Shown here: positions 13,600-22,864 of the stretch, one piece after another
Numbering within the stretch: the first letter of the stretch is position 1
Layout: each line of letters starts with the position of its first letter
Assembly: GCA_938003925.1 (NCBI GenBank)
Contig: CALKWQ010000047.1
Span: 1,048 to 65,047, forward strand
Source: an uncultured bacterium
GTDB taxonomy: Bacteria > Patescibacteriota > Patescibacteriia > Patescibacteriales > UBA12465
DNA length: 64,000 nt
Direction: 5' to 3'
Position numbers and translations under genes: made by a program
The notes under the pieces: model-generated
What the model was told of the DNA's origin: nothing
The model's input: only the letters and a program-made list of their open reading frames with translations
The model's database searches: none

Positions 13600-14952
13600 A
13601 TGAATCAGACAAATACTGCTCTTGGGCTTAAAACGGCCGTACAAGGGCAAATAGGGGCTAATTCAGGGCTTTTAGACGGCGAAATAAGGTATTGCTTATA
13701 CGCCAGAAAGTCCACCGAAGAAGATGAAAAACAGGCTCTTTCCATTGAATCCCAAGTTAAGGAAATGATAGAAATGGCTATCAGGGACAATATCCAGATA
13801 GCCGAAATCCGCCGGGAAAGCCATAGTGCTAAGGATTCCGGGCAAAGGCCAATATTTAACCAACTTATAGTCGATATCAAGAGAGGGGCTTTCAACGGAA
13901 TCATCTGCTGGGCGCCGGATAGGTTAAGCCGCAACGCCGGCGACTTAGGTGCGATAGTCGACTTAATGGATCAAGGGCTAATTAAAGAAATCAGGACTCA
14001 TGGCCAAAAATTTACTAATAGTCCCAATGAAAAATTCCTTCTGATGATATTAGGCTCGCAAGCCAAGCTTGAAAACGACCATAAGGGCGAGAATGTTAAA
14101 CGAGGTCTTAGAGCTAAATGCGAACAAGGCTGGCGGCCGGGGCGTCCACCACTAGGGTATCTGCACGACAAATACGCTGACAAAGGTCAGAAGAAAGTAA
14201 CAATCGACCCCAAACGAGCGCCGATAGTGAAAAAGATATTTGAAAAAATGGCTAATGAAGAATTGAGTTGCCGCAAAATACATCAATGGTTAACTACTGA
14301 AACTGATTTTAAAACAAGAAACGGAAAGCCAATGCCGCTTAGCCTTGTCCAAAGAATGATTAGAGAGCCATTTTATTATGGCGAATTTGAATATCCAACC
14401 GGAAGCGACAAATGGTATAAGGGCGGATATGAACCGATAATATCTAAAGAACTTTATACAAAAGCCAACGAAAGATTAAGGAGAAATAATATTTCAAGAC
14501 AAGATTGCAAAGAATTTGCTTTCACTAAACTTATGAAATGCGGATATTGCGGATCGGGAATAACCGCAGAAGAAAAATTCAAAAAACTGGTCGATGGATC
14601 AGTTAGAAGATATGTATATTATGGTTGTGCCAGATCAAAGAATGTTAAATGCGACCATGGCATGCTTAGAGAAGAAGAACTAATAGAGCAATTAGTCGGA
14701 CTGATGGACAAAATTGATATTAATGAAATAGGAATTAAAAACAAATTTGAAGACGAAGTAAGTAGATTCTACAAATTCAGCAAAGGAATACTGGGCGTAA
14801 CTGGAAACGACTTTGAAAAACAAAAAGATTTAGATATTAGAAACTATGCTAAATATGTGCTTAAGGAGGGCTCTATTCTTGAGAAACGAGAGGTTTTAGC
14901 ATGTCTTGAGAGTAAGTTGGTGATGAAGGAGAAGAAAATATATATGAATTAA
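13600..14952 (+). CDS. Large serine recombinase (phage-integrase/transposase type), 450 aa
   Basis: The resolvase catalytic domain is YCLYARKSTEEDEKQALSIESQ, with IICWAPDRLSRN. A recombinase domain follows. The zinc ribbon is CGYCGSGITAEEKF...YYGCARSKNVKC, followed by a coiled-coil-like tail. Confidence 0.85.
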   Translation: MNQTNTALGLKTAVQGQIGANSGLLDGEIRYCLYARKSTEEDEKQALSIESQVKEMIEMAIRDNIQIAEIRRESHSAKDSGQRPIFNQLIVDIKRGAFNGIICWAPDRLSRNAGDLGAIVDLMDQGLIKEIRTHGQKFTNSPNEKFLLMILGSQAKLENDHKGENVKRGLRAKCEQGWRPGRPPLGYLHDKYADKGQKKVTIDPKRAPIVKKIFEKMANEELSCRKIHQWLTTETDFKTRNGKPMPLSLVQRMIREPFYYGEFEYPTGSDKWYKGGYEPIISKELYTKANERLRRNNISRQDCKEFAFTKLMKCGYCGSGITAEEKFKKLVDGSVRRYVYYGCARSKNVKCDHGMLREEELIEQLVGLMDKIDINEIGIKNKFEDEVSRFYKFSKGILGVTGNDFEKQKDLDIRNYAKYVLKEGSILEKREVLACLESKLVMKEKKIYMN

Positions 14953-14956
14953 AACA

Positions 14957-16240
14957 TTACCGATTCTTTATTATTTCTAATTCCTCATTATTGATTAGTG
15001 TCTTCGTACCATTCTCCATAGAAATCTCATTCATTAATCTTCCGTTAATATCTTTTAATTTAATATCATTTATTATTGAATTATCAAACATTTTTCCTAC
15101 AACATCTTTTTTGTAATCAATAATATCTTTAATTCTTTTAAACAATTTATCTTGCATCCCTTTACCAGCACCCTGAGTATATACAGGATCATTAAAAATA
15201 TTTTCCTCCTTTAAATATTTTATGTACACCTTATTCGATTTATTATCAATTCCAATATAATTAAGCAATCTGAAAAGCGCCCCTATTCCTGTTGTCTTAA
15301 AAACTATACTTTTATATTCTTGTCTTACATAATAACCTATAATATTTTTCTTTGGGACTAAATCAATAAAATTCTCTTTTATTATATTAAAAAAATCTTT
15401 TATGCAATCAAGAACAAAGTTAAATGATTCTTTCCCATTATTGCCCTCCTTATACTCATAAAAATATTTATAAAAAATACCATTTTTTTTAACCAAAGGC
15501 ATTATGCATTCTGAAATAAACGACTGAGTTATAATGCCAAATTTTTCATCCCCTAGCATTTTAATCATTCCTTTAAACGGGCTATCCTCATCATTATTTA
15601 AATATTTAGATAAAAAATGAACAAAAGTTATATCATTTTTATCTTCTGGCATTTCTCCAAAAATATCATAATAAAGAGATCTGTTGACTTGTTTTTGATT
15701 AAAATTAACATTAGCAAATACTCCAGATTGCTGATAATAATCGTAATTTAATAAAATAGTTACTGGAAATTCAATGACTAACGAATTTTTTAAATTTGGG
15801 TATTTTTCAAAAAAATCACTAACACCAACATATCGATGTTGTCCATCAACAATTAAGACCGGCTTATTTTCCATCTTTTCTGGAATCAACAGCTCATAGC
15901 TATCCCCGTTTTTACGTATTGTTAAATTATCTAAACTTTGTTCGTTCTCGGTTTCAATAATTTCTGAATCAAACGCCACTATTAATGCGGATGGAAACAA
16001 AGATACAATATCGCTTTTATCCATTAATTTATCTTCGCCTTCAACAAATAAACTCCTCTCAATATATTTAACTATTTTCTTGGTTCTATCGGGATTAATT
16101 CTTCTCTGATATGAATCTTTTTTATTATCATCCTCCCTAACAGTTAATTTAGCTATTTTTTGCAAATCAAAAAAATTAATGTTAGCTACAAATGTATTAC
16201 TAAATATTGAATTATTTTTTAAAATATTTATTTTTTTCAT
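14957..16240 (-). CDS. DGQHR-domain protein (DndB-like, ParB/Srx superfamily), 427 aa
   Basis: Literal motif LIVDGQHRYVG, an upstream SYQRRINPDRTKKIVKYI, and a downstream FANVNFNQKQVNRSLYYDI. These are the three blocks I associate with the DndB/DGQHR family. Confidence 0.8.
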   Translation of the reverse strand: MKKINILKNNSIFSNTFVANINFFDLQKIAKLTVREDDNKKDSYQRRINPDRTKKIVKYIERSLFVEGEDKLMDKSDIVSLFPSALIVAFDSEIIETENEQSLDNLTIRKNGDSYELLIPEKMENKPVLIVDGQHRYVGVSDFFEKYPNLKNSLVIEFPVTILLNYDYYQQSGVFANVNFNQKQVNRSLYYDIFGEMPEDKNDITFVHFLSKYLNNDEDSPFKGMIKMLGDEKFGIITQSFISECIMPLVKKNGIFYKYFYEYKEGNNGKESFNFVLDCIKDFFNIIKENFIDLVPKKNIIGYYVRQEYKSIVFKTTGIGALFRLLNYIGIDNKSNKVYIKYLKEENIFNDPVYTQGAGKGMQDKLFKRIKDIIDYKKDVVGKMFDNSIINDIKLKDINGRLMNEISMENGTKTLINNEELEIIKNR

Positions 16241-16246
16241 ATAAAC

Positions 16247-17017
16247 CTAACCTTTTCTAGGATCTTGGCCCTTAAAATTAAAACTATCTTCAATGGGTTC
16301 TGATAATGCGAGCCCTTTCATAATCTCCTTTACTTCATTAATCCCGGCTTCGTTGGAACCCGGCTGACTAGAAATATATTCTAGTAATTTTTTAGAAATC
16401 CCATCAATTATTTCTCTTGCTGCGATTTGCGATGCATCAATCTTCAGGGAATCAATTTTATCTGCAAGCTTCATGGCATACTGATTTTTAACTTCATCAA
16501 TTTCAGCTATAAACTTATCCTTGATTTCTTTAAAATCTTCTTCCTGCCTCTTAATAACTTTTTCAATATCCGCATTTCCACGATCTATAAATTTATCAAA
16601 ATCTTCTCTAGCACCTTTTATTTCACCGGATTTATAAATACCAAGACCAGTGGCAATTATAAGAAGTAAAACACCATAAACATTAATAAGAATGAACAAT
16701 ATATCCCAATACTTTTCTTTAAAATCTATTCCATCATTTTTTGTATTAACAGCCTCCAATAATTTTTCATTTGCTAATGATATATTTGATTGGTTAGAAA
16801 TCGTTAAATCTAACTGTTTTTTATAATCTTGTTGATTACTTTTTATTGAATTTATATCACTATTTAATGTTGTGTTTTCTTTAACAATTAAATCTATCTT
16901 TTTATTTAAATCATTAATAACTTTTTGATCATTATCAGGAGACGCAAAAACGCATGGAACATAAATAAATATCCCAATTAAAATTACTAAATATTTTATA
17001 CTTTTTATAGACATCAT
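16247..17017 (-). CDS. Membrane coiled-coil protein, 256 aa, co-transcribed with the DGQHR gene
   Basis: N-terminal signal/TM segment (LVILIGIFIYVPCVFA), a central TM segment (WDILFILINVYGVLLLIIATGLGIY), and heptad-like charged segments on both sides. A 6-nt gap separates it from the DGQHR start. No family recognised. Confidence 0.6.
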   Translation of the reverse strand: MMSIKSIKYLVILIGIFIYVPCVFASPDNDQKVINDLNKKIDLIVKENTTLNSDINSIKSNQQDYKKQLDLTISNQSNISLANEKLLEAVNTKNDGIDFKEKYWDILFILINVYGVLLLIIATGLGIYKSGEIKGAREDFDKFIDRGNADIEKVIKRQEEDFKEIKDKFIAEIDEVKNQYAMKLADKIDSLKIDASQIAAREIIDGISKKLLEYISSQPGSNEAGINEVKEIMKGLALSEPIEDSFNFKGQDPRKG

Positions 17018-17112
17018 TACTAACTAATTATTTTTCTAGATTTTATGCCTATTTCATAAAAATAACAAGTCTTTGAAAACTTTAAATATTTAATTTATTA
17101 ATAGCTAAAAAA

Positions 17113-18030
17113 TTATAATATTTTACCTAAAACACCTTTTTCAATCATATCAAGACTAAAAATATAATCATTATGATTAAATGTTTCTCTAAGTGGACGA
17201 GATGTGCCGACCCAACCCCTACCATCAGTAACCCAAACGAATTTATATTTACCATCCAAAACATTAAATAAATCTCTATATTCTCCTGCTGTCGATTTTA
17301 ATTTAGATCCGCCACCACCATAAAAATTTGTTTCAAAAATTATTATATCTTTACCGGTATTCACAACATAGTCGTAACGGCGAGAAGATTTGTCTACTGG
17401 AACATCAAACCCCCATTCCACTTTTATTTTTTCCGCAGTCGCCTCTTTCAAATATTTGAATCCCCTGGTTTTACAAATATCAGCAATAAAGAAACCAACG
17501 ATATCTTCCATTGAATGACCACTTCTATTCTTACGACCATTACTATCCAAACCAGCTTCTACGCCAATCATATAATCAACAAGATTTTTTATTTTTTGAG
17601 ACATTATCAGATCCTTAAGTCCCGTTTCTTTAACAAAAAGAAGGTATTTTTCAATATCTTTGTCCGAGGTCAATGGTTTAGAAAAATCGTAATCTTCGTA
17701 AACCAATTTTTTCTTTTTATAATCAACTAGAATTTTAAATTTATTTGTATTACTGCCATCCCTAACAACTAAAGCTGGAATAACTTTAATAATTTCGGGG
17801 TTTTGTTTAACTAAATACTTAAATTCTTTATCAAAATCTTTTTTGCCAATTAAATAGTTTAAATTATTTAAGGCGATTTCAATTTTTTTGGTGTTAGCAA
17901 AAACCTTTTCCCAATTTACAAAATATGACCAAAGCATATTACTTGGTTTAAGATTTTTTATTAGATAATCAAAAACTTGATCATCACTTTCACACCCAAG
18001 TACTTCCTTATAAAAATTAATAAATTTCAT
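17113..18030 (-). CDS. Type II restriction endonuclease, DpnII/MboI family (GATC-specific family), 305 aa
   Basis: NLVDYMIGVEAGLDSNGRKNRSGHSMEDIV and FETNFYGGGGSKLKSTAGEY closely parallel the R.DpnII sequence as I remember it (NLVDYVTGVEVGMDTNGRKNRTGDAMENIV; EVNFYSGSGSKLNETARSY). It is the last gene of an operon with Dam-type and DpnA-type methyltransferases. Confidence 0.8.
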   Translation of the reverse strand: MKFINFYKEVLGCESDDQVFDYLIKNLKPSNMLWSYFVNWEKVFANTKKIEIALNNLNYLIGKKDFDKEFKYLVKQNPEIIKVIPALVVRDGSNTNKFKILVDYKKKKLVYEDYDFSKPLTSDKDIEKYLLFVKETGLKDLIMSQKIKNLVDYMIGVEAGLDSNGRKNRSGHSMEDIVGFFIADICKTRGFKYLKEATAEKIKVEWGFDVPVDKSSRRYDYVVNTGKDIIIFETNFYGGGGSKLKSTAGEYRDLFNVLDGKYKFVWVTDGRGWVGTSRPLRETFNHNDYIFSLDMIEKGVLGKIL

Positions 18031-18033
18031 ATA

Positions 18034-18798
18034 TTATTTAATTATATATCTCCCTGATTTTACAAATTTAATACTGTTATAGTCGTTGATATCTTTAAAA
18101 ATAAATTGCCAAATAGAGTAAACTCCTGTTTTATCATTTTTTTCAAAAAACAATGTTATAACTTTCTTTTTTGTTATTGATTGCCATTGTCTGAATGGAT
18201 AATACAATTGTCTTATAATAGTATCTTTAGTTTTCTTATTTTTAGCTTCTATTAATACTAGCTGCTTTTCCCCTTCATAGCCAGCATCGACTTCTGTTTG
18301 CACGCTATTAACACTTATTTTTTGTTTTCCCACAAAAAAACTAAATTCCGGAGTAAATTTTCTCCCTCTTATTGTTAAAACTAATGATTTATCATCAATA
18401 AAAGTTCTAATCAAACTAGAGGCATAGGCAAAATCCAAGTGCTGCATTTCAGAATTTCCTACCTTAGAAGAATCCAAAGAAAAATTCAATTTGGTATCAT
18501 ATTCTTTTATTTCTGATGTAATTTCAGGAATATCAATATAGCCCTCGCCTTTTATTATATTATAAAAACCATTTTTTACTGGCAAAATAAACAAATTATT
18601 TGAAATAAAAATATCGGGGCGGCTCTTTCGGCTATCCTGTTTACACAATATTCGTACTTCTTTCTCTGTGGTCTTTTTAAATTTTTGGCAAGATTCCTTT
18701 ATTTGATCAGCCGATAAACAAAAAGGTGATTTATTAAAATCGTGTTTTAATATTTTATAATCTTTAAATATTTGTTCCCAGGATAAATTTTTAGCCAT
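18034..18798 (-). CDS. Uncharacterised protein with a PD-(D/E)xK-like motif, 254 aa, inserted between the methyltransferase and the DpnII-type endonuclease
   Basis: ...SVQTEVDAGYEGEKQLVLIEAKNKK has D-x14-E-A-K spacing, typical of PD-(D/E)xK nucleases. The gene has 3-5 nt gaps to both neighbours. No family recognised. Confidence 0.45.
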   Translation of the reverse strand: MAKNLSWEQIFKDYKILKHDFNKSPFCLSADQIKESCQKFKKTTEKEVRILCKQDSRKSRPDIFISNNLFILPVKNGFYNIIKGEGYIDIPEITSEIKEYDTKLNFSLDSSKVGNSEMQHLDFAYASSLIRTFIDDKSLVLTIRGRKFTPEFSFFVGKQKISVNSVQTEVDAGYEGEKQLVLIEAKNKKTKDTIIRQLYYPFRQWQSITKKKVITLFFEKNDKTGVYSIWQFIFKDINDYNSIKFVKSGRYIIK

Positions 18799-18803
18799 AT
18801 TTT

Positions 18804-19583
18804 TTACGCTAACGCATTTAATCTCTGCAGAGAAAGATCTAAATAGTTTTTATCAGAATCAATTCCGACAAATTTTCTTTTATATAAATTAGCGGCCACA
18901 CCAGTAGTTGAACTGCCAGCGAAAGGATCGAGAATAATATCACCCTCTTTAGTACTAGATAGTATTATTCTTTTAAGTAAATCTAATGGCTTTTGGGTTG
19001 GGTGTTTGCCAAATTGTTTTTCTTCTTTCTTAGGTGTACCCATAGACCAAACCGAGCGCATCTGTAAATATGGTTTCTTAAATTCATCTTCTGACCAATC
19101 ACCATTTTTAATGTCTTGATAATTAAAAGTGTGTTTGGCCTTCTTCTCTTTCCTCGCCCAAATTAAAGTTTCATGACTAGCAGTAAAAAAACGACAACTT
19201 AAATTAGGGGCGGCGTTAGGTTTAAACCAAGAAATGTCATTTAAAATATGATATTTGGTGTTTTGCAATATAAAACCACACTGATATATGGAATGATAAG
19301 TGCCGCTTATCCAAATGGTGCCGTGGGGTTTTAATACTCTACGACATTCTTTAATCCAGTCAAGATGAAAATTAAAATCTTTTTGGAAGCCGTTACTTAA
19401 ATCCCAATCGCCCTTTTTAACACTTACCATTTTCCCGTTTTGGCAACTAAAACTACCGCTCGACAAAAAGTATGGCGGGTCGGCAAAAATCATATCAAAG
19501 TAATTTTCTGGGAATCTTTTCAATTCTTCTAAACAATCACCATGATATAAAGCAAAGTTTTTTTGCTTTTTATACAAACACAT
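18804..19583 (-). CDS. DNA methyltransferase, beta class (DpnA-like N6-adenine/N4-cytosine), 259 aa
   Basis: The catalytic motif IFADPPYF is near the N-terminus and the AdoMet motif DPFAGSSTTGVAA near the C-terminus. This is the circularly permuted beta order, as in M2.DpnII (DpnA). Confidence 0.85.
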   Translation of the reverse strand: MCLYKKQKNFALYHGDCLEELKRFPENYFDMIFADPPYFLSSGSFSCQNGKMVSVKKGDWDLSNGFQKDFNFHLDWIKECRRVLKPHGTIWISGTYHSIYQCGFILQNTKYHILNDISWFKPNAAPNLSCRFFTASHETLIWARKEKKAKHTFNYQDIKNGDWSEDEFKKPYLQMRSVWSMGTPKKEEKQFGKHPTQKPLDLLKRIILSSTKEGDIILDPFAGSSTTGVAANLYKRKFVGIDSDKNYLDLSLQRLNALA

Positions 19584-19586
19584 ATT

Positions 19587-20423
19587 TTATTTATAATTTC
19601 TTACTACAACCTCAGAAACATCGCCTCTTTTTTCCGCCATACAATTAATGAAACGCTTAGCACTAACCTTGGTTATGTTCCATTCTTTATATAGTTTTCT
19701 AATATAAGGAGTATCTGAATTGCTTAACATAAGTATACACCCTCGGGCATCAAGTTTCTTAAAAGTTTCTTTCAATTTTTCCTGTTCTTTTTCTAAAAAG
19801 TTTTCCTTTGTGTAGGTGGTAAAATTTGAGCCAGTATTTAACGGATAGTATGGGGGATCAAAATAAACAAAGTCCCCTTTCTTGGCATTTTGTAATACCT
19901 GTGTAAAATCGGTGTGTTCTATTTTAGTTTTTTTTAATATTTTGCTAGCCGACAATATTCCTTCTTCATTAACCAAAAACTTCTTATGCTGCCCAAACGG
20001 AACATTGAATTCACCTTTACTATTAACCCTATATAAACCATTAAAACAAGTTTTATTAAGATAGATTAAATGAGCCGCCTTATTTATTTTGTCTAGTTTA
20101 TCTGCGTTATATTCTTCTCTAATCTTCAAATAAAACTCTTTACTATGCTTCTTTTCGTATTTCCTCAATAAAGTAATTAACTCCTTTGGATGACTTTTTA
20201 TAATCTTATAAGTTTCAATTAGGTCTTTATTTAAATCAGAGATAATAGCTTCTTTTGGTTCTAAATAAAAAAAGACAGCCCCTCCGCCGATAAACGGTTC
20301 GATATATCTTTTGTAAGTTCCTTCTCTTGGAAATAATGGTTTAAATTGTTCTAATAATTGGGATTTACCACCGGCCCATTTCAAAAATGGCTCGACTCTT
20401 TTCTTTTGTTTATCTAAAATCAT
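19587..20423 (-). CDS. Dam-family N6-adenine DNA methyltransferase (DpnM-like, GATC family), 278 aa
   Basis: FLKWAGGKSQLLEQF, EPFIGGGAVFF and YFDPPYYP are Dam/DpnM hallmark motifs. It is the first gene of the R-M operon. Confidence 0.9.
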   Translation of the reverse strand: MILDKQKKRVEPFLKWAGGKSQLLEQFKPLFPREGTYKRYIEPFIGGGAVFFYLEPKEAIISDLNKDLIETYKIIKSHPKELITLLRKYEKKHSKEFYLKIREEYNADKLDKINKAAHLIYLNKTCFNGLYRVNSKGEFNVPFGQHKKFLVNEEGILSASKILKKTKIEHTDFTQVLQNAKKGDFVYFDPPYYPLNTGSNFTTYTKENFLEKEQEKLKETFKKLDARGCILMLSNSDTPYIRKLYKEWNITKVSAKRFINCMAEKRGDVSEVVVRNYK

Positions 20424-20455
20424 AATTTATGAAAAATTGCTCAAATTATATACAT

Positions 20456-20484
20456 ATTATAGCTTAATAAAAATATATTTGAAA
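20456..20484 (-). promoter_or_regulatory. Candidate promoter of the R-M operon
   Basis: Minus strand reads TTTCAA (20484-20479), a 17-nt spacer, then TATAAT (20461-20456), about 30 nt upstream of the Dam start. Confidence 0.4.
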
Positions 20485-20500
20485 CCACTTTTTTAACCAA

Positions 20501-20688
20501 GTAAAAGCTGATTCTCGGATTCGAACCAAAAATCCCCTTTATTTACAGGCCTTTCCGCTTATTTGACTTAAACAAAAGAACTCAGCGCAAACTGAGTTCT
20601 TCTGATTTTTTGGTAATATTAGACCTCTCCTGTCGGTCTTAAACACCAAAATGTTGTTGGCTCTCGCAGTGATATTCGAACCTGAGTC
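20501..20688 (-). repeat. Direct repeat copy A of the tRNA-3'-flank module (includes a degenerate tRNA 3' end)
   Basis: 20536-20663 aligns without gaps to 22010-22137, with about 6 mismatches in 128 positions by eye. On the minus strand it starts with GGTTCGAATATCACTGCGAGAGCCA, compared with the real tRNA end GGTTCGAATCCCACCCTGGGAGCCA. It contains the terminator hairpin AGAACTCAG-N6-CTGAGTTCT. Confidence 0.85.
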
Positions 20689-20729
20689 GGTCTTAAAACA
20701 CGATTATCCTCTGCTGTATTTAATATTAG

Positions 20730-21374
20730 CTAAAAATCTATTACTTGTCTTAAAACTTTTAACAACGAGTTGAATAAAATTTCATGTCCAGATTCGTTAG
20801 GATGCAACCCATCTTCGCAGAACAATCTCTTATAGTCATTATCCATAAAAGCCGAATTAACATCGATAAGATAAATGCTTTTGTTATCAGCTATTTTCTT
20901 AATTCTTTCATTATACTTGTTTACATACTCATTAAGTCTAGACTTATCTTTGTTAATAGGATGAGCGGTCAATTCTTCATCAACAGGAGCAATATTTAGA
21001 ATAAATATTTTATTACCAAATTTTTTAGCCTGATCTATTGTATTCACCAAATTATTTTCAAAATTATCAACTTCAACTCGAAATTTATTTTGGCTTGGAA
21101 TAATAGCCGAATCATTTGCTCCATAAGCAAAGATAAAAATATTTTCTTCTTGCTTCTCTTCTCTAATTCTCGCTTTGATTTCCGGTAGAAAACGATTGAC
21201 CAAACCTTCAGTTGTTTCGCCTGGAATCCCTAAATTATATGTTAAAAAATAAAGACTATCATCTTCCTCTTGTTTTTTATCTAAATATATTCTTAATTTT
21301 TGTGCCCACCCAGAAGAGTCCACGTCCCAAGCACCATATGTTATGCTATCTCCAAAACAAAATATTTGCGCCAT
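20730..21374 (-). CDS. SGNH/GDSL-family hydrolase, 214 aa
   Basis: Block I is FCFGDSITYG, block III is YGANDS, and block V is DGLHPN. The track ORF is extended upstream; ATG at 21374 (MAQIFCFGDS) fits the family and abuts the upstream gene. Confidence 0.8.
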   Translation of the reverse strand: MAQIFCFGDSITYGAWDVDSSGWAQKLRIYLDKKQEEDDSLYFLTYNLGIPGETTEGLVNRFLPEIKARIREEKQEENIFIFAYGANDSAIIPSQNKFRVEVDNFENNLVNTIDQAKKFGNKIFILNIAPVDEELTAHPINKDKSRLNEYVNKYNERIKKIADNKSIYLIDVNSAFMDNDYKRLFCEDGLHPNESGHEILFNSLLKVLRQVIDF

Positions 21375-21378
21375 ATAA

Positions 21379-21924
21379 TTAGTTAAATATATAATCCCAT
21401 CCTGGCTGCCAGGCTTTTTTCTTTCGCCAATCTTCAACAAAAGCTTGTTCCCATGTCTTGCCCCTTAATAACACATCAAGAGCTAACTGAGGAGCCTTGT
21501 GAGCGACGATGGCCACGGACTTATCGTCATAGTTTTCTTTCAAAAAATTAAGGAAATCGTTTATTCTTATTTTTACATCTTCATAAGATTCTCCCTCTAA
21601 AAATCTATCTGTAATCATCTTCTCTTGCATCGGTTCAACAATATCAGAAGACTGGCCGTTATACTGACCGTAATTGCATTCCCTCAATCTTTTATCCTGA
21701 ATTATTTTTACTTTGCCATTAAACGTAAGTTCGGCAGATTTTACGGCTCTTTTTAAATCAGAACAAAAAACCACATCAAAATGTTTGTCTTTAATCTGAT
21801 CAATTAAATCAATTGATTGTTTAATCCCTAAATCAGAAAGTTCTACATCTAACCAACCAGAAGAGATATTCTTTTCATTATCGGTTGTCGTCCCGTGGAC
21901 GAAATAAGTTATTTTTATGCTCAT
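21379..21924 (-). CDS. Histidine phosphatase (phosphoglycerate-mutase-like) family protein, 181 aa
   Basis: The N-terminal ITYFVHGTTTDN lies at the position of the RHG motif, with Arg replaced by Val. DLGIKQ, CSDLKRAVKSAE and VAIVAHKAPQ fit the family layout. Confidence 0.6.
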   Translation of the reverse strand: MSIKITYFVHGTTTDNEKNISSGWLDVELSDLGIKQSIDLIDQIKDKHFDVVFCSDLKRAVKSAELTFNGKVKIIQDKRLRECNYGQYNGQSSDIVEPMQEKMITDRFLEGESYEDVKIRINDFLNFLKENYDDKSVAIVAHKAPQLALDVLLRGKTWEQAFVEDWRKKKAWQPGWDYIFN

Positions 21925-21975
21925 ATTATTTAATTAAGCTAATTATATAATAGCTTAATAATATATAAATTAAAA

Positions 21976-22162
21976 GTAAAACTGGCAGTGGGATTAGAAC
22001 CACAAATATCCTTTATTTATAGGCATTTCCGCTTATTTGACTTAAACAAAAGAACTCAGTACAAACTGAGTTCTTTCGATTTTTTGGTAATATTAGACCT
22101 CTCCTGTCGGTCTTAAACACCAAAATGTTGTTGGCTCCCAGGGTGGGATTCGAACCCACGAC
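21976..22162 (-). repeat. Direct repeat copy B of the tRNA-3'-flank module (contains the genuine tRNA 3' exon end)
   Basis: See copy A. The portion at 22132-22162 is the T-arm and acceptor 3' strand of the tRNA. The rest is the tRNA downstream region, with the hairpin AGAACTCAG-N6-CTGAGTTCT and a second T-arm-like box GTGGTTCTAATCCCAC (minus, ~21986-22001). Confidence 0.85.
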
Positions 22163-22172
22163 CAATTGGTTA

Positions 22173-22722
22173 CACTTACCCACTAATTTCTTAATGGTGT
22201 GGACTATATCATCATCCAAAATGGATGCAAGGCGCTTCGGGCCGTCTAACTAGACAGACCTACTCCCTTTCGGGATAGTCTCTGAACCTTACCTGAATAC
22301 ACAGGTCTTGGCTGCTGATTACCTTAGCCTCTCGGCCTTAGGCTTCCAGACAGTTCACCTTGTTTTCATTCCTCAATTACTTGAGGAAGCTGCGTGTTGC
22401 TTTCATGCGCCTCACGATGACAGTTTGCACATAACAATAGACACTTATCTAACTCTCTTCTTATGACTGCCCAGCTCCTGGTATAACCTTTTGCAGAGAT
22501 ACCAAAATCTTTTTTGTCAGATTCCAAATGATGGAATTCTAGAGCCTTCAAACATCTATTGTAACCGCAAACGGAACATTTGCCACCTTTGTATTCAAGA
22601 GCCAATTGACGTAGGCGCTTACGCCTCCGATCAACTGCTAACTTCAAATACTGGGCGCGATCAGCATATTTTCTCTTATCCTTTGTCATAATTACTATGA
22701 TAGCAAAAGATAAAGTGTGTTC
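22173..22722 (-). mobile_element. Group I intron in the tRNA anticodon loop, carrying an HNH endonuclease ORF
   Basis: The classical conserved group I elements are readable on the minus strand. Q-like AATCAGCAGCC is at 22320-22310, R GGTTCAGAGACTAT at 22288-22275, and S GATGATATAGTCC ends at 22201. GACTA/TATAGTC can form P7. GNRA-capped hairpins GGCC-GAGA-GGCT and CCC-GAAA-GGG are present. A G precedes the 3' exon. The exact splice sites are inferred. Confidence 0.8.
22366..22689 (-). CDS. HNH homing-endonuclease-like protein, 107 aa (intron-encoded)
   Basis: CSVCGY...LEFHHLESDKKDFGIS...LLLCANCHREAHE is a His-Me finger with CxxC...CxxC zinc ligands. It lies entirely inside the intron and starts ~33 nt after the 5' splice site. 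Confidence 0.8.
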   Translation of the reverse strand: MTKDKRKYADRAQYLKLAVDRRRKRLRQLALEYKGGKCSVCGYNRCLKALEFHHLESDKKDFGISAKGYTRSWAVIRRELDKCLLLCANCHREAHESNTQLPQVIEE

Positions 22723-22864
22723 ACAGCCAACTGCGCTACCGCTGCGCTACCTGGGAATATTAAATTGTTACCAAACAAAAAATGTTGCATTCAACATTTC
22801 CCCTTTATTTTAGGAGAAATCAAGGCCTAAGTCAATAGGCTATTTTCAGCTTAAATTAAGAAAA

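Follow-up and report, generated by a model that had tools for sequence, protein, structure and literature searches.

A group I intron with an HNH gene in its P1 loop separates anticodon bases 35 and 36 of a tRNA-Asn(GUU) gene

Which tRNA, if any, is encoded in a stretch of genome where a standard tRNA search reports nothing? The stretch, which we call the window, is 64 kb of an uncultured bacterium of the Patescibacteriota (contig CALKWQ010000047.1, positions 1,048 to 65,047 of the forward strand). ARAGORN in its default mode finds zero tRNAs across these 64 kb; with introns allowed, it reports a split cloverleaf, the sole tRNA in the window, and calls it Thr(tgt) i(33,550). A preliminary description of the locus had proposed a tRNA gene split in its anticodon loop by a group I intron that encodes an HNH endonuclease, and had preferred asparagine to threonine as its identity. 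We find that the sole tRNA gene of the window is tRNA-Asn(GUU), interrupted between anticodon bases 35 and 36. The observation as a whole is confirmed to the base, and it is far beyond chance. That the interruption is a mobile HNH-bearing group I intron of the IA type is the explanation of the whole in which we place high confidence. The element lies on the minus strand throughout, and its main parts are:

22756-22723, minus strand: tRNA-Asn(GUU) 5′ exon (acceptor, D arm, 5′ strand of the anticodon stem), 34 nt, from ARAGORN with introns allowed
22722-22173, minus strand: group I (IA-type) intron between tRNA positions 35 and 36, 550 nt, from Rfam RF00028 and comparative junctions
22689-22366, minus strand: HNH (His-Me finger) homing-endonuclease open reading frame (ORF), 107 aa, in the P1 loop, intact, matched by PHROG HNH
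22172-22132, minus strand: tRNA-Asn 3′ exon (U36 A37 A38, 3′ strand of the anticodon stem, variable loop, T arm, acceptor), 41 nt, from ARAGORN with introns allowed and comparative junctions

From 22756 to 22723 the 5′ exon reads TCCCAGG-TA-GCGC-AGCGGTA-GCGC-A-GTTGG-CTGT, and it ends in CUGU, nucleotides 32-35 of the loop. From 22172 to 22132 the 3′ exon reads TAA-CCAAT-TGGTC-GTGGG-TTCGAAT-CCCAC-CCTGGGA-G-CCA, with UAA at its start, and the discriminator G and an encoded CCA at its end. Joined, the two exons make a 75-nt cloverleaf in which every element claimed for it is where it had been placed. A naive reading straight through the 5′ half gives His(GUG), and it was rejected: no 3′ half follows, and ARAGORN without an intron finds nothing.

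Where exactly the exons are joined decides the identity of the tRNA. The window alone permits two solutions, CU/...G/UGUAA, which would make a tRNA-Thr(UGU) with its intron at 33/34, and CUGU/...G/UAA, which makes a tRNA-Asn. The threonine solution is the one that ARAGORN calls, and in its junction too the intron is preceded by a U and ends in a G. The choice between the two can be made by comparison. We gathered relatives of the locus by means of the HNH protein, which has more than 1000 homologues; in a scan of one genome per species, at least 508 genomes encode an HNH relative, and the best 80 loci were taken. A split tRNA is found around or beside the HNH gene in 78 of these 80 loci. All 78 have a 5′ exon ending in CTGT, and in all of the split-tRNA loci the 3′ exon begins with TAA[C/T]C and has a G directly before it. 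The rule CUGU/intron...G/UAA leads to tRNA-Asn(gtt) in 71 of the 71 loci with both junctions located (the window and 70 homologues), the last intron base being a G in all 71; it is thus between positions 35 and 36 that the intron resides. Spliced in silico by this rule, the window is called by ARAGORN as Asn(gtt) with a canonical cloverleaf, as are the 70 homologues.

The threonine solution, on the other hand, fails in many homologous loci, which lack either a G two bases before the 3′ junction or a GU following the CU. As examples, in L045 (...CACTTG/TAA) and L052 (...AAGCG/TAA) only the asparagine solution obeys the rule of a U at −1 and a terminal omega-G. The internal guide of the ribozyme, GCAGCU, sets its U.G pair after CUGU, and the acceptor stem, the discriminator G, and the whole body of the tRNA match intron-less tRNA-Asn genes at 97% (the spliced window tRNA is identical in 73 of 75 positions to the intron-less tRNA-Asn of two contigs, L099 and L131). 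The exact spliced junction is also present in at least 120 metagenome contigs, 113 of them called as tRNA-Asn(gtt). Finally, the same mis-call, off by exactly 2 nt, has been documented for ARAGORN and tFind by Nakagawa et al. (mSystems 2026, PMC13011429; preprint 10.1101/2025.07.03.662931), together with the sequenced splice product of a homologue. The comparative junctions rule out an intron at 33/34, a reading to which we assign next to no probability, and the ARAGORN call is a known artefact of a 2-nt shift. The preference for CTGT/TAA, Asn-GTT, and discriminator G in the preliminary description is upheld by the comparative junctions, by the guide, and by an intron-less allele described below.

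This matters in practice. Standard tools either report no tRNA-Asn at such a locus or mis-call it as threonine, and therefore the completeness estimates of genomes of the candidate phyla radiation (CPR) are lowered and the loss of a tRNA could be falsely inferred.

What kind of sequence separates the two exons? The only Rfam match above its gathering score in the window is the group I intron model (RF00028, Intron_gpI) at 22438-22180 on the minus strand, which scores 79.6 bits (gathering score 50; E = 1.4e-18) over the full model, positions 1-253. The elements of the ribozyme, all on the minus strand, are:

22728-22723, minus strand: P1 5′ strand, formed by exon GGCUGU; U22723, at the splice site, provides the U of the U.G pair; pairs with GCAGCU
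22393-22388, minus strand: P1 3′ strand, the internal guide GCAGCU, directly 5′ of P2
22387-22370, minus strand: P2 hairpin UCCUCAA-GUAA-UUGAGGA with a GNRA loop; 7 of 7 pairs changed on both sides; in the minimum free energy (MFE) fold
22362-22356, minus strand: P3 5′ strand CAAGGUG; 98.4% pairing in P3, where 4 pairs have changes on both sides
22352-22286, minus strand: P4-P5-P6 domain; 99.2% pairing in P4, where 4 pairs covary; conserved bases in P5 and P6; in the MFE fold
22320-22310, minus strand: AATCAGCAGCC, J5/4-P4′-P6
22288-22275, minus strand: GGTTCAGAGACTAT, J6/7-P7
22282-22275, minus strand: P7 5′ strand, within GGUUCAGAGACUAU; 6 of 7 pairs invariant in 44 sequences; forms a pseudoknot with P3
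22274-22240, minus strand: P7.1 (CCC-GAAA-GGG) and P7.2 (GGUCUGUCU-AGUU-AGACGGCC), between P7 and P3′; in the MFE fold
22234-22228, minus strand: P3 3′ strand CGCCUUG, from the covariation analysis
22226-22214, minus strand: P8 hairpin AUCCA-UUU-UGGAU; 5 of 5 pairs changed on both sides; in the MFE fold
22213-22201, minus strand: GATGATATAGTCC, J8/7-P7′
22207-22201, minus strand: P7 3′ strand, within GAUGAUAUAGUCC; AUAGUCC invariant
22197-22180, minus strand: P9 hairpin CCAUUAA-GAAA-UUAGUGG; 6 of 7 pairs covary; GAAA loop nearly invariant
22173, minus strand: omega-G, the final intron nucleotide; G in 71 of 71 loci

The three core motifs that had been pointed out from the sequence, AATCAGCAGCC, GGTTCAGAGACTAT, and GATGATATAGTCC, are all present, and so are GNRA-capped hairpins, as L2 GUAA, L5 GAGA, L7.1 GAAA, and L9 GAAA.

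In order to evaluate the evolutionary support for this fold, we used 44 aligned cores that include the self-splicing homologue introduced below (alignment A2) and a hand-drawn P2-P9 structure with nine scored helices (P2, P3, P4, P5, P6, P7, P7.1, P8, and P9), of which P3 and P7 are pseudoknotted. For the 47 base pairs of these helices, 93.9% of the cells in the alignment are paired, and sliding the partners leaves 44.7% at the most. Changes on both sides have occurred in 31 of the 47 pairs, and none of 500 shuffles reaches the observed values. Not all helices contribute equally. P7.1 includes 3 covarying pairs, but only 75.6% of its cells are paired across the family. P7 is almost invariant and therefore uninformative for covariation, and near-invariance is as expected for the catalytic core. 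The MFE fold of the window core recovers P2, P3, P4-P6, P7.1, P7.2, P8, and P9 (z = −3.39). All of the invariant core positions of the family are kept in the window, and every one of its helices pairs.

The guide sequence GCAGC[U/C] is invariant in 70 loci. In the window it is found 329 nt from the 5′ splice site, and thus the ORF occupies the loop of P1. The guide does not covary with exon position −5 (G/A/C), so that P1 is effectively 4-6 bp long. Rfam places a 'P2' inside the ORF (22434-22400), which we rejected: the order of P1′ GCAGCU and then the covarying hairpin at 22387-22370 fits that of the self-splicing homologue without a homing-endonuclease gene (HEG), which according to the supplementary table of PMC13011429 begins GGCUGU/uaaag-GCAGCC-P2.

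Most members of the family have in P5 the canonical 11-nt GAAA-tetraloop receptor CCUAAG...UAUGG, together with a nearly invariant GAAA in L9, which suggests that the usual L9-P5 tertiary contact may form. The window has a receptor-like variant in P5 (22322-22343, CCUAAG...CUAAGG, with a GAGA loop) and its L9 GAAA at 22187-22190. The presence of two hairpins between P7 and P3′ fits subgroup IA, the class given in PMC13011429.

The window core is 71% identical, over 210 aligned core nucleotides, to the intron of GCA_016700035.1, which self-spliced precisely at 35/36 in vitro and for which a change of omega-G to C blocked splicing (PMC13011429). By analogy, guanosine-dependent self-splicing would be expected of the window copy. 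Transcription of the locus would produce a precursor of ~625 nt or more, in which the intron would fold via P1-P9, with P1 formed by the exon GGCUGU and the internal guide GCAGCU. The site of attack by exogenous guanosine would be the U.G pair, just after U35. G22173, the last intron base, would then take the G-binding site, and the exons would be ligated. The product would be a normal 75-nt tRNA-Asn with the anticodon loop CUGUUAA and the junction sequence GGCUGUUAACC.

A locus such as this one could instead be dead: a tRNA pseudogene with an intron that does not splice, while a functional intron-less tRNA-Asn gene is encoded elsewhere. Only 64 kb of the genome are in view, and the window has no further tRNA. 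The conservation just described speaks otherwise, since the invariant core positions are all kept and all helices pair. The exons are identical to those of the related contig L001 across the part that L001 holds, and 97% identical to functional intron-less genes. Moreover, in the Patescibacteria genomes of the published splicing assays, the interrupted gene is the sole copy of tRNA-Asn. We consider a pseudogene to be very improbable.

Is there an empty site? The window tRNA gene lies downstream of dnaG and rpoD, and rpoD precedes the tRNA-Asn in 30 of the 80 genome loci. An intron-less allele in relatives had been proposed as a check, and metagenome contig L099 provides the exact one: with an RpoD 95.4% identical to that of the window and a shared upstream region, it has at the same rpoD-tRNA-Asn locus an uninterrupted tRNA-Asn that reads GGCTGT-TAACC. 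In contig L001, whose RpoD is 94% identical, the intron and its endonuclease gene are present. With L001 occupied and L099 empty, the element is therefore polymorphic among close relatives, a presence/absence pattern that fits a recent gain or loss.

We turn next to the HNH ORF. It begins with an ATG 33 nt past the 5′ splice site, as had been described, and it is intact; its best match is to a PHROG HNH family (E = 1.4e-27). Among 28 HNH homologues there are 28 invariant columns, which include the CxxC...CxxC and HH/H residues, and C38, C41, C87, C90, H53, H54, N89, H91, and H95 are invariant or nearly so. In comparisons with 11 close relatives, third codon positions collect most of the differences (10/8/49 for the three codon positions versus L001). 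Comparison of these sequences thus indicates an intact gene under purifying selection. In an AlphaFold2 (AF2) model of the protein (pLDDT 81.5), a beta-beta-alpha unit comes after a long N-terminal helix, and the top 38 PDB matches that Foldseek finds for it are all HNH-type nuclease domains, including those of Cap5, the Gme HNH nickase, Cas9 HNH, ZRANB3, and T4 endonuclease VII. A sequence search of the PDB gives marginal matches only, to the McrA HNH domain and to the nuclease domain of a group II intron maturase.

Conservation at the end of the protein has to be read with care. The final 9 codons (TQLPQVIEE) and the stop codon overlap P1′, P2, and J2/3. Across 68 loci, the ORF shares between 13 and 214 nt (median 55 nt) with the ribozyme. 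Where homologues are longer, their conserved tail ...VIEVEKQGE... is a translation of the ribozyme core (J2/3-P3-P4). The 3′ end of the ORF (22366-22393; columns 101-147 of alignment A1) is read from ribozyme sequence, and therefore the tail TQLPQVIEVEKQGE reflects constraints on the RNA and not on the protein.

The proposal for the mobile part of the element is that the P1 loop has been colonized by this 107-aa HNH gene (His-Me finger, Cys4 zinc). The probable target of its enzyme is the intron-less tRNA-Asn gene, nicked or cut close to the sequence of the anticodon loop, and repair would then copy the intron and the endonuclease gene into the empty allele (homing).

Several observations weigh against the proposal of a self-splicing, homing intron at this locus. 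P1 is just 4-6 bp long and must close a loop of ~327 nt, and since it is invariant it has no covariation support of its own. The Pfam HNH match (PF01844) scores 18.6 bits, just under the 21.4 cut-off, and Foldseek gives weak structural matches (E ≥ 0.029). The HNH ATG has no visible Shine-Dalgarno sequence ahead of it. A second, intron-less tRNA-Asn gene is possible elsewhere in the genome, beyond the 64-kb window. And the window copy is known from sequence alone.

Some of these points fit a situation in which the ribozyme splices, and the HNH protein no longer drives homing (it could be inactive, decaying, or have a maturase or general nuclease role), with the intron inherited only vertically. 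Homing-endonuclease genes cycle through invasion, decay, and loss, and few tRNA introns carry an endonuclease gene (12 of 333). The missing Shine-Dalgarno sequence counts on the same side, as does the C-terminal conservation, which is partly forced by the overlapping RNA. Yet 68 of the 71 spliced loci have an intact ORF, the metal-binding and catalytic residues are all invariant, and substitutions pile up at third codon positions. The intron is polymorphic among genomes with 94-95% identical RpoD, and the family is found free-standing beside phage tRNA-Asn genes, as an active target-specific enzyme would be. We regard the loss of homing as unlikely, and homing into intron-less tRNA-Asn genes as the better account of the HNH gene.

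How widely are the intron and its HNH family distributed? Of 18 loci checked against Rfam, 16 have a group I intron above the gathering score. They include two complete Pyrinomonadaceae chromosomes, L058 (OY970389.1) and L072 (OZ252034.1), as well as Nitrospira (L056, L070) and Acetothermia (L054). In all, the HNH-bearing tRNA-Asn intron is found outside Patescibacteria in L058, L072, L056, L070, L054, L048, L063, L061, and L077, with Rfam scores of 52-102 bits; Elusimicrobia, Aerophobetes, and MAGs labelled as Planctomycetia are among the further hosts named. Omnitrophota, Planctomycetia, and other phyla come from the record titles of further HNH loci outside the Rfam check. Thus, HNH-bearing 35/36 tRNA-Asn introns are neither rare, with an HNH relative in at least 508 species representatives, nor confined to Patescibacteria.

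The genomic setting also varies. In L061 (1-2735), from an Aerophobetes metagenome-assembled genome (MAG), the intron-bearing tRNA-Asn directly follows a 23S-5S rRNA operon, and therefore the element occurs also in tRNA genes distal to rRNA operons and not just downstream of rpoD.

Viral genomes provide a different view of the same HNH family. IMG/VR viral contigs include at least 576 loci with HNH relatives, 48-63% identical, of which we analyzed the best 80 (L201-L280). In these 80, the HNH gene is free-standing within tRNA arrays (examples are L205 1501-1737, L214 1501-1794, and L224 1501-1734), except for the intron-bearing L201, where the ORF is inside the intron. The nearest tRNA is tRNA-Asn(gtt) in 44 of the 74 viral loci that have any tRNA, and a tRNA-Asn is found within 300 nt of the HNH gene in 52 of the 80; asparagine accounts for just 71 of the 488 tRNAs in those loci. 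This association suggests that the HNH family recognizes tRNA-Asn gene sequence and that phages may harbor a tRNA-Asn-specific endonuclease lineage. An nhmmer search of the 80 viral loci with the core profile finds the intron in L201 and L202 only. In both (L201 1434-2053 and L202 869-1149, classed as viral), there is a group I intron in tRNA-Asn, with Rfam scores of 70 and 67 bits, respectively, while a 2014 review has all known phage introns in protein-coding genes.

There is also an intermediate arrangement. In L069 (2501-3132), L074 (2026-2785), and L202 (616-1149), the HNH gene is beside, and not inside, a tRNA-Asn with a HEG-less group I intron, and in L069 the HNH gene lies between rpoD and tRNA-Asn. 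L066 (2501-3101) has a similar arrangement, but without confirmation by Rfam. The introns of these four loci are short, 206-251 nt. Such loci resemble 'collaborative homing', or they may capture the moment at which an endonuclease gene moves into or out of the intron.

A tentative extension, which we think conceivable and somewhat unlikely, is that all these loci belong to one tRNA-Asn-specific HNH lineage with three lifestyles (free-standing in phages, beside the intron, and in the P1 loop), spread by phages over at least six phyla, a count that is approximate given that some MAG record titles are placeholders. If true, the collection would be a natural record, in many snapshots, of a free-standing endonuclease capturing a ribozyme, from collaborative homing to mobile intron. 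The HNH enzyme might also serve to attack incoming DNA whose tRNA-Asn genes have no intron. In any case, the link of the HNH family to phage tRNA arrays offers a concrete and testable route for the spread of an intron across phyla.

The remaining features near the tRNA gene, and those in the region downstream of it, are:

22835-22807, minus strand: sigma-70-like promoter TTGACT-17-TAAAAT upstream of the tRNA, from a consensus scan with 10 of 12 matches
22076-22049, no strand assigned: 12-bp terminator-like hairpin, ~56 nt downstream of the CCA end, scored on the plus strand
17113-18030: DpnII of a DpnII-type restriction-modification cassette
18804-19583 and 19587-20423: the two methyltransferases of the DpnII cassette
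13600-14952, plus strand: large serine recombinase, just beyond the far edge of the low-GC block, in sequence of ~36-42% GC
Elsewhere in the low-GC block: genes for a histidine phosphatase, a GDSL hydrolase, DUF6996/6997, and a DndB-like protein

The blocks TTGACTT and TAAAAT/TAGAAT are kept in L099 and L001, and the site at 22835-22807 is a candidate promoter. Next to the hairpin at 22076-22049 comes, on the minus strand, UUUUGUUU, and this hairpin is a putative terminator. Between the promoter-like site and the tRNA 5′ end there is an AT-rich hairpin followed by a run of U (AAAUGUUGAAUGCAACAUUUUUUGUUU, 22766-22797, minus strand), also kept in L099 and L001, which could be the rpoD terminator or a leader element.

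Does the tRNA gene border an integrated island? The preliminary description placed the intron at an island integration hotspot. Downstream of the tRNA-Asn, the GC content falls from ~44% to 27-34% over ~15000-22000, and the block with its restriction-modification and recombinase genes is indeed there; a repeat that would mark integration is not, as no att-type direct repeat of the tRNA 3′ end is found in the window with up to 3 mismatches allowed. None of the genes listed for this region, the recombinase included, occurs within 2.5 kb of the tRNA-Asn in the 80 genome loci. In contig L096, however, the two methyltransferases recur at 90-94% identity, downstream of a tRNA-Asn that has no intron. 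An island that adjoins the tRNA, independent of the intron, is plausible.

As a separate observation, a T-arm-like fragment, GTGGTTCTAATCCCACTGCCAG (21982-22003, minus strand), follows the 3′ end of the tRNA-Asn at a distance of ~130 nt on the downstream side. It occurs only once in the window, neither ARAGORN nor Rfam calls it, and it may be a remnant of another tRNA or an old attachment site.

How does the element compare with known systems? Azoarcus tRNA-Ile and the cyanobacterial and plastid tRNA-Leu(UAA) genes have introns that reportedly have no ORF (Reinhold-Hurek & Shub 1992; Zaug et al. 1993; among the references of PMC13011429). Like the window intron, they are compact ribozymes placed in the anticodon loop, their P1 adjoins the anticodon stem, and their P2 and P9 are capped by GNRA loops. 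Unlike it, they belong to class IC3, are located at 34/35 or 36/37, and have neither an endonuclease nor P7.1 and P7.2.

The closest system is the one published for Patescibacteria. Nakagawa et al. (PMC13011429) described group IA introns at 35/36 in 15 tRNA-Asn genes among 95 complete Patescibacteria genomes; four intron copies encode HNH (PF01844) endonucleases. The claim made for the window, that an ORF-bearing copy in a CPR-like genome was undescribed, is therefore outdated. The host tRNA, the site, P1 (GGCUGU/GCAGCY), and the P2-P9 architecture are the same. The copy assayed by these authors has no endonuclease gene and is 234 nt long, with a P1 loop of 5 nt, whereas the window has the ORF in that loop. 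By the account in PMC13011429, the class had been listed earlier as 'Asn.4Ug' by Williams 2020 (bioRxiv 10.1101/2020.01.27.920355). The window locus is another copy of this published element, of a kind already known, and by itself it opens no new question. The published survey, restricted to complete genomes, saw endonuclease-bearing 35/36 IA introns in Patescibacteria alone, and its authors anticipated that draft genomes might alter the picture; our scan finds an HNH relative in at least 508 species genomes, other phyla included. What is new is the breadth of the distribution and the phage and free-standing relatives, and not the locus in the window.

The intron with I-Ssp6803I in Synechocystis (Bonocora & Shub 2001, as outlined in PMC3984707; PF11645 class in PMC13011429) differs in its host, tRNA-fMet, in its site, 33/34, and in its occurrence in cyanobacteria, and its endonuclease is, as far as these accounts go, of the PD-(D/E)XK type and not HNH. 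The HNH fold of the window ORF is that of the phage enzymes, both the intron-encoded I-HmuI, I-TevIII, and I-PfoP3I (PMC3428280) and the free-standing MobE (PMC2790892), so that intron-borne and free-standing lifestyles are both known for phage HNH enzymes. The phage enzymes are larger, have multiple domains, and target protein-coding genes, whereas the window HNH has 107 aa and is associated with a tRNA gene. Phage systems in which the endonuclease gene adjoins the intron-containing target gene have the same layout as L069, L074, and L202. Collaborative homing, in the outline given by PMC3984707, pairs a free-standing endonuclease with an ORF-less intron, and has been proposed as a stage in the origin of mobile introns.

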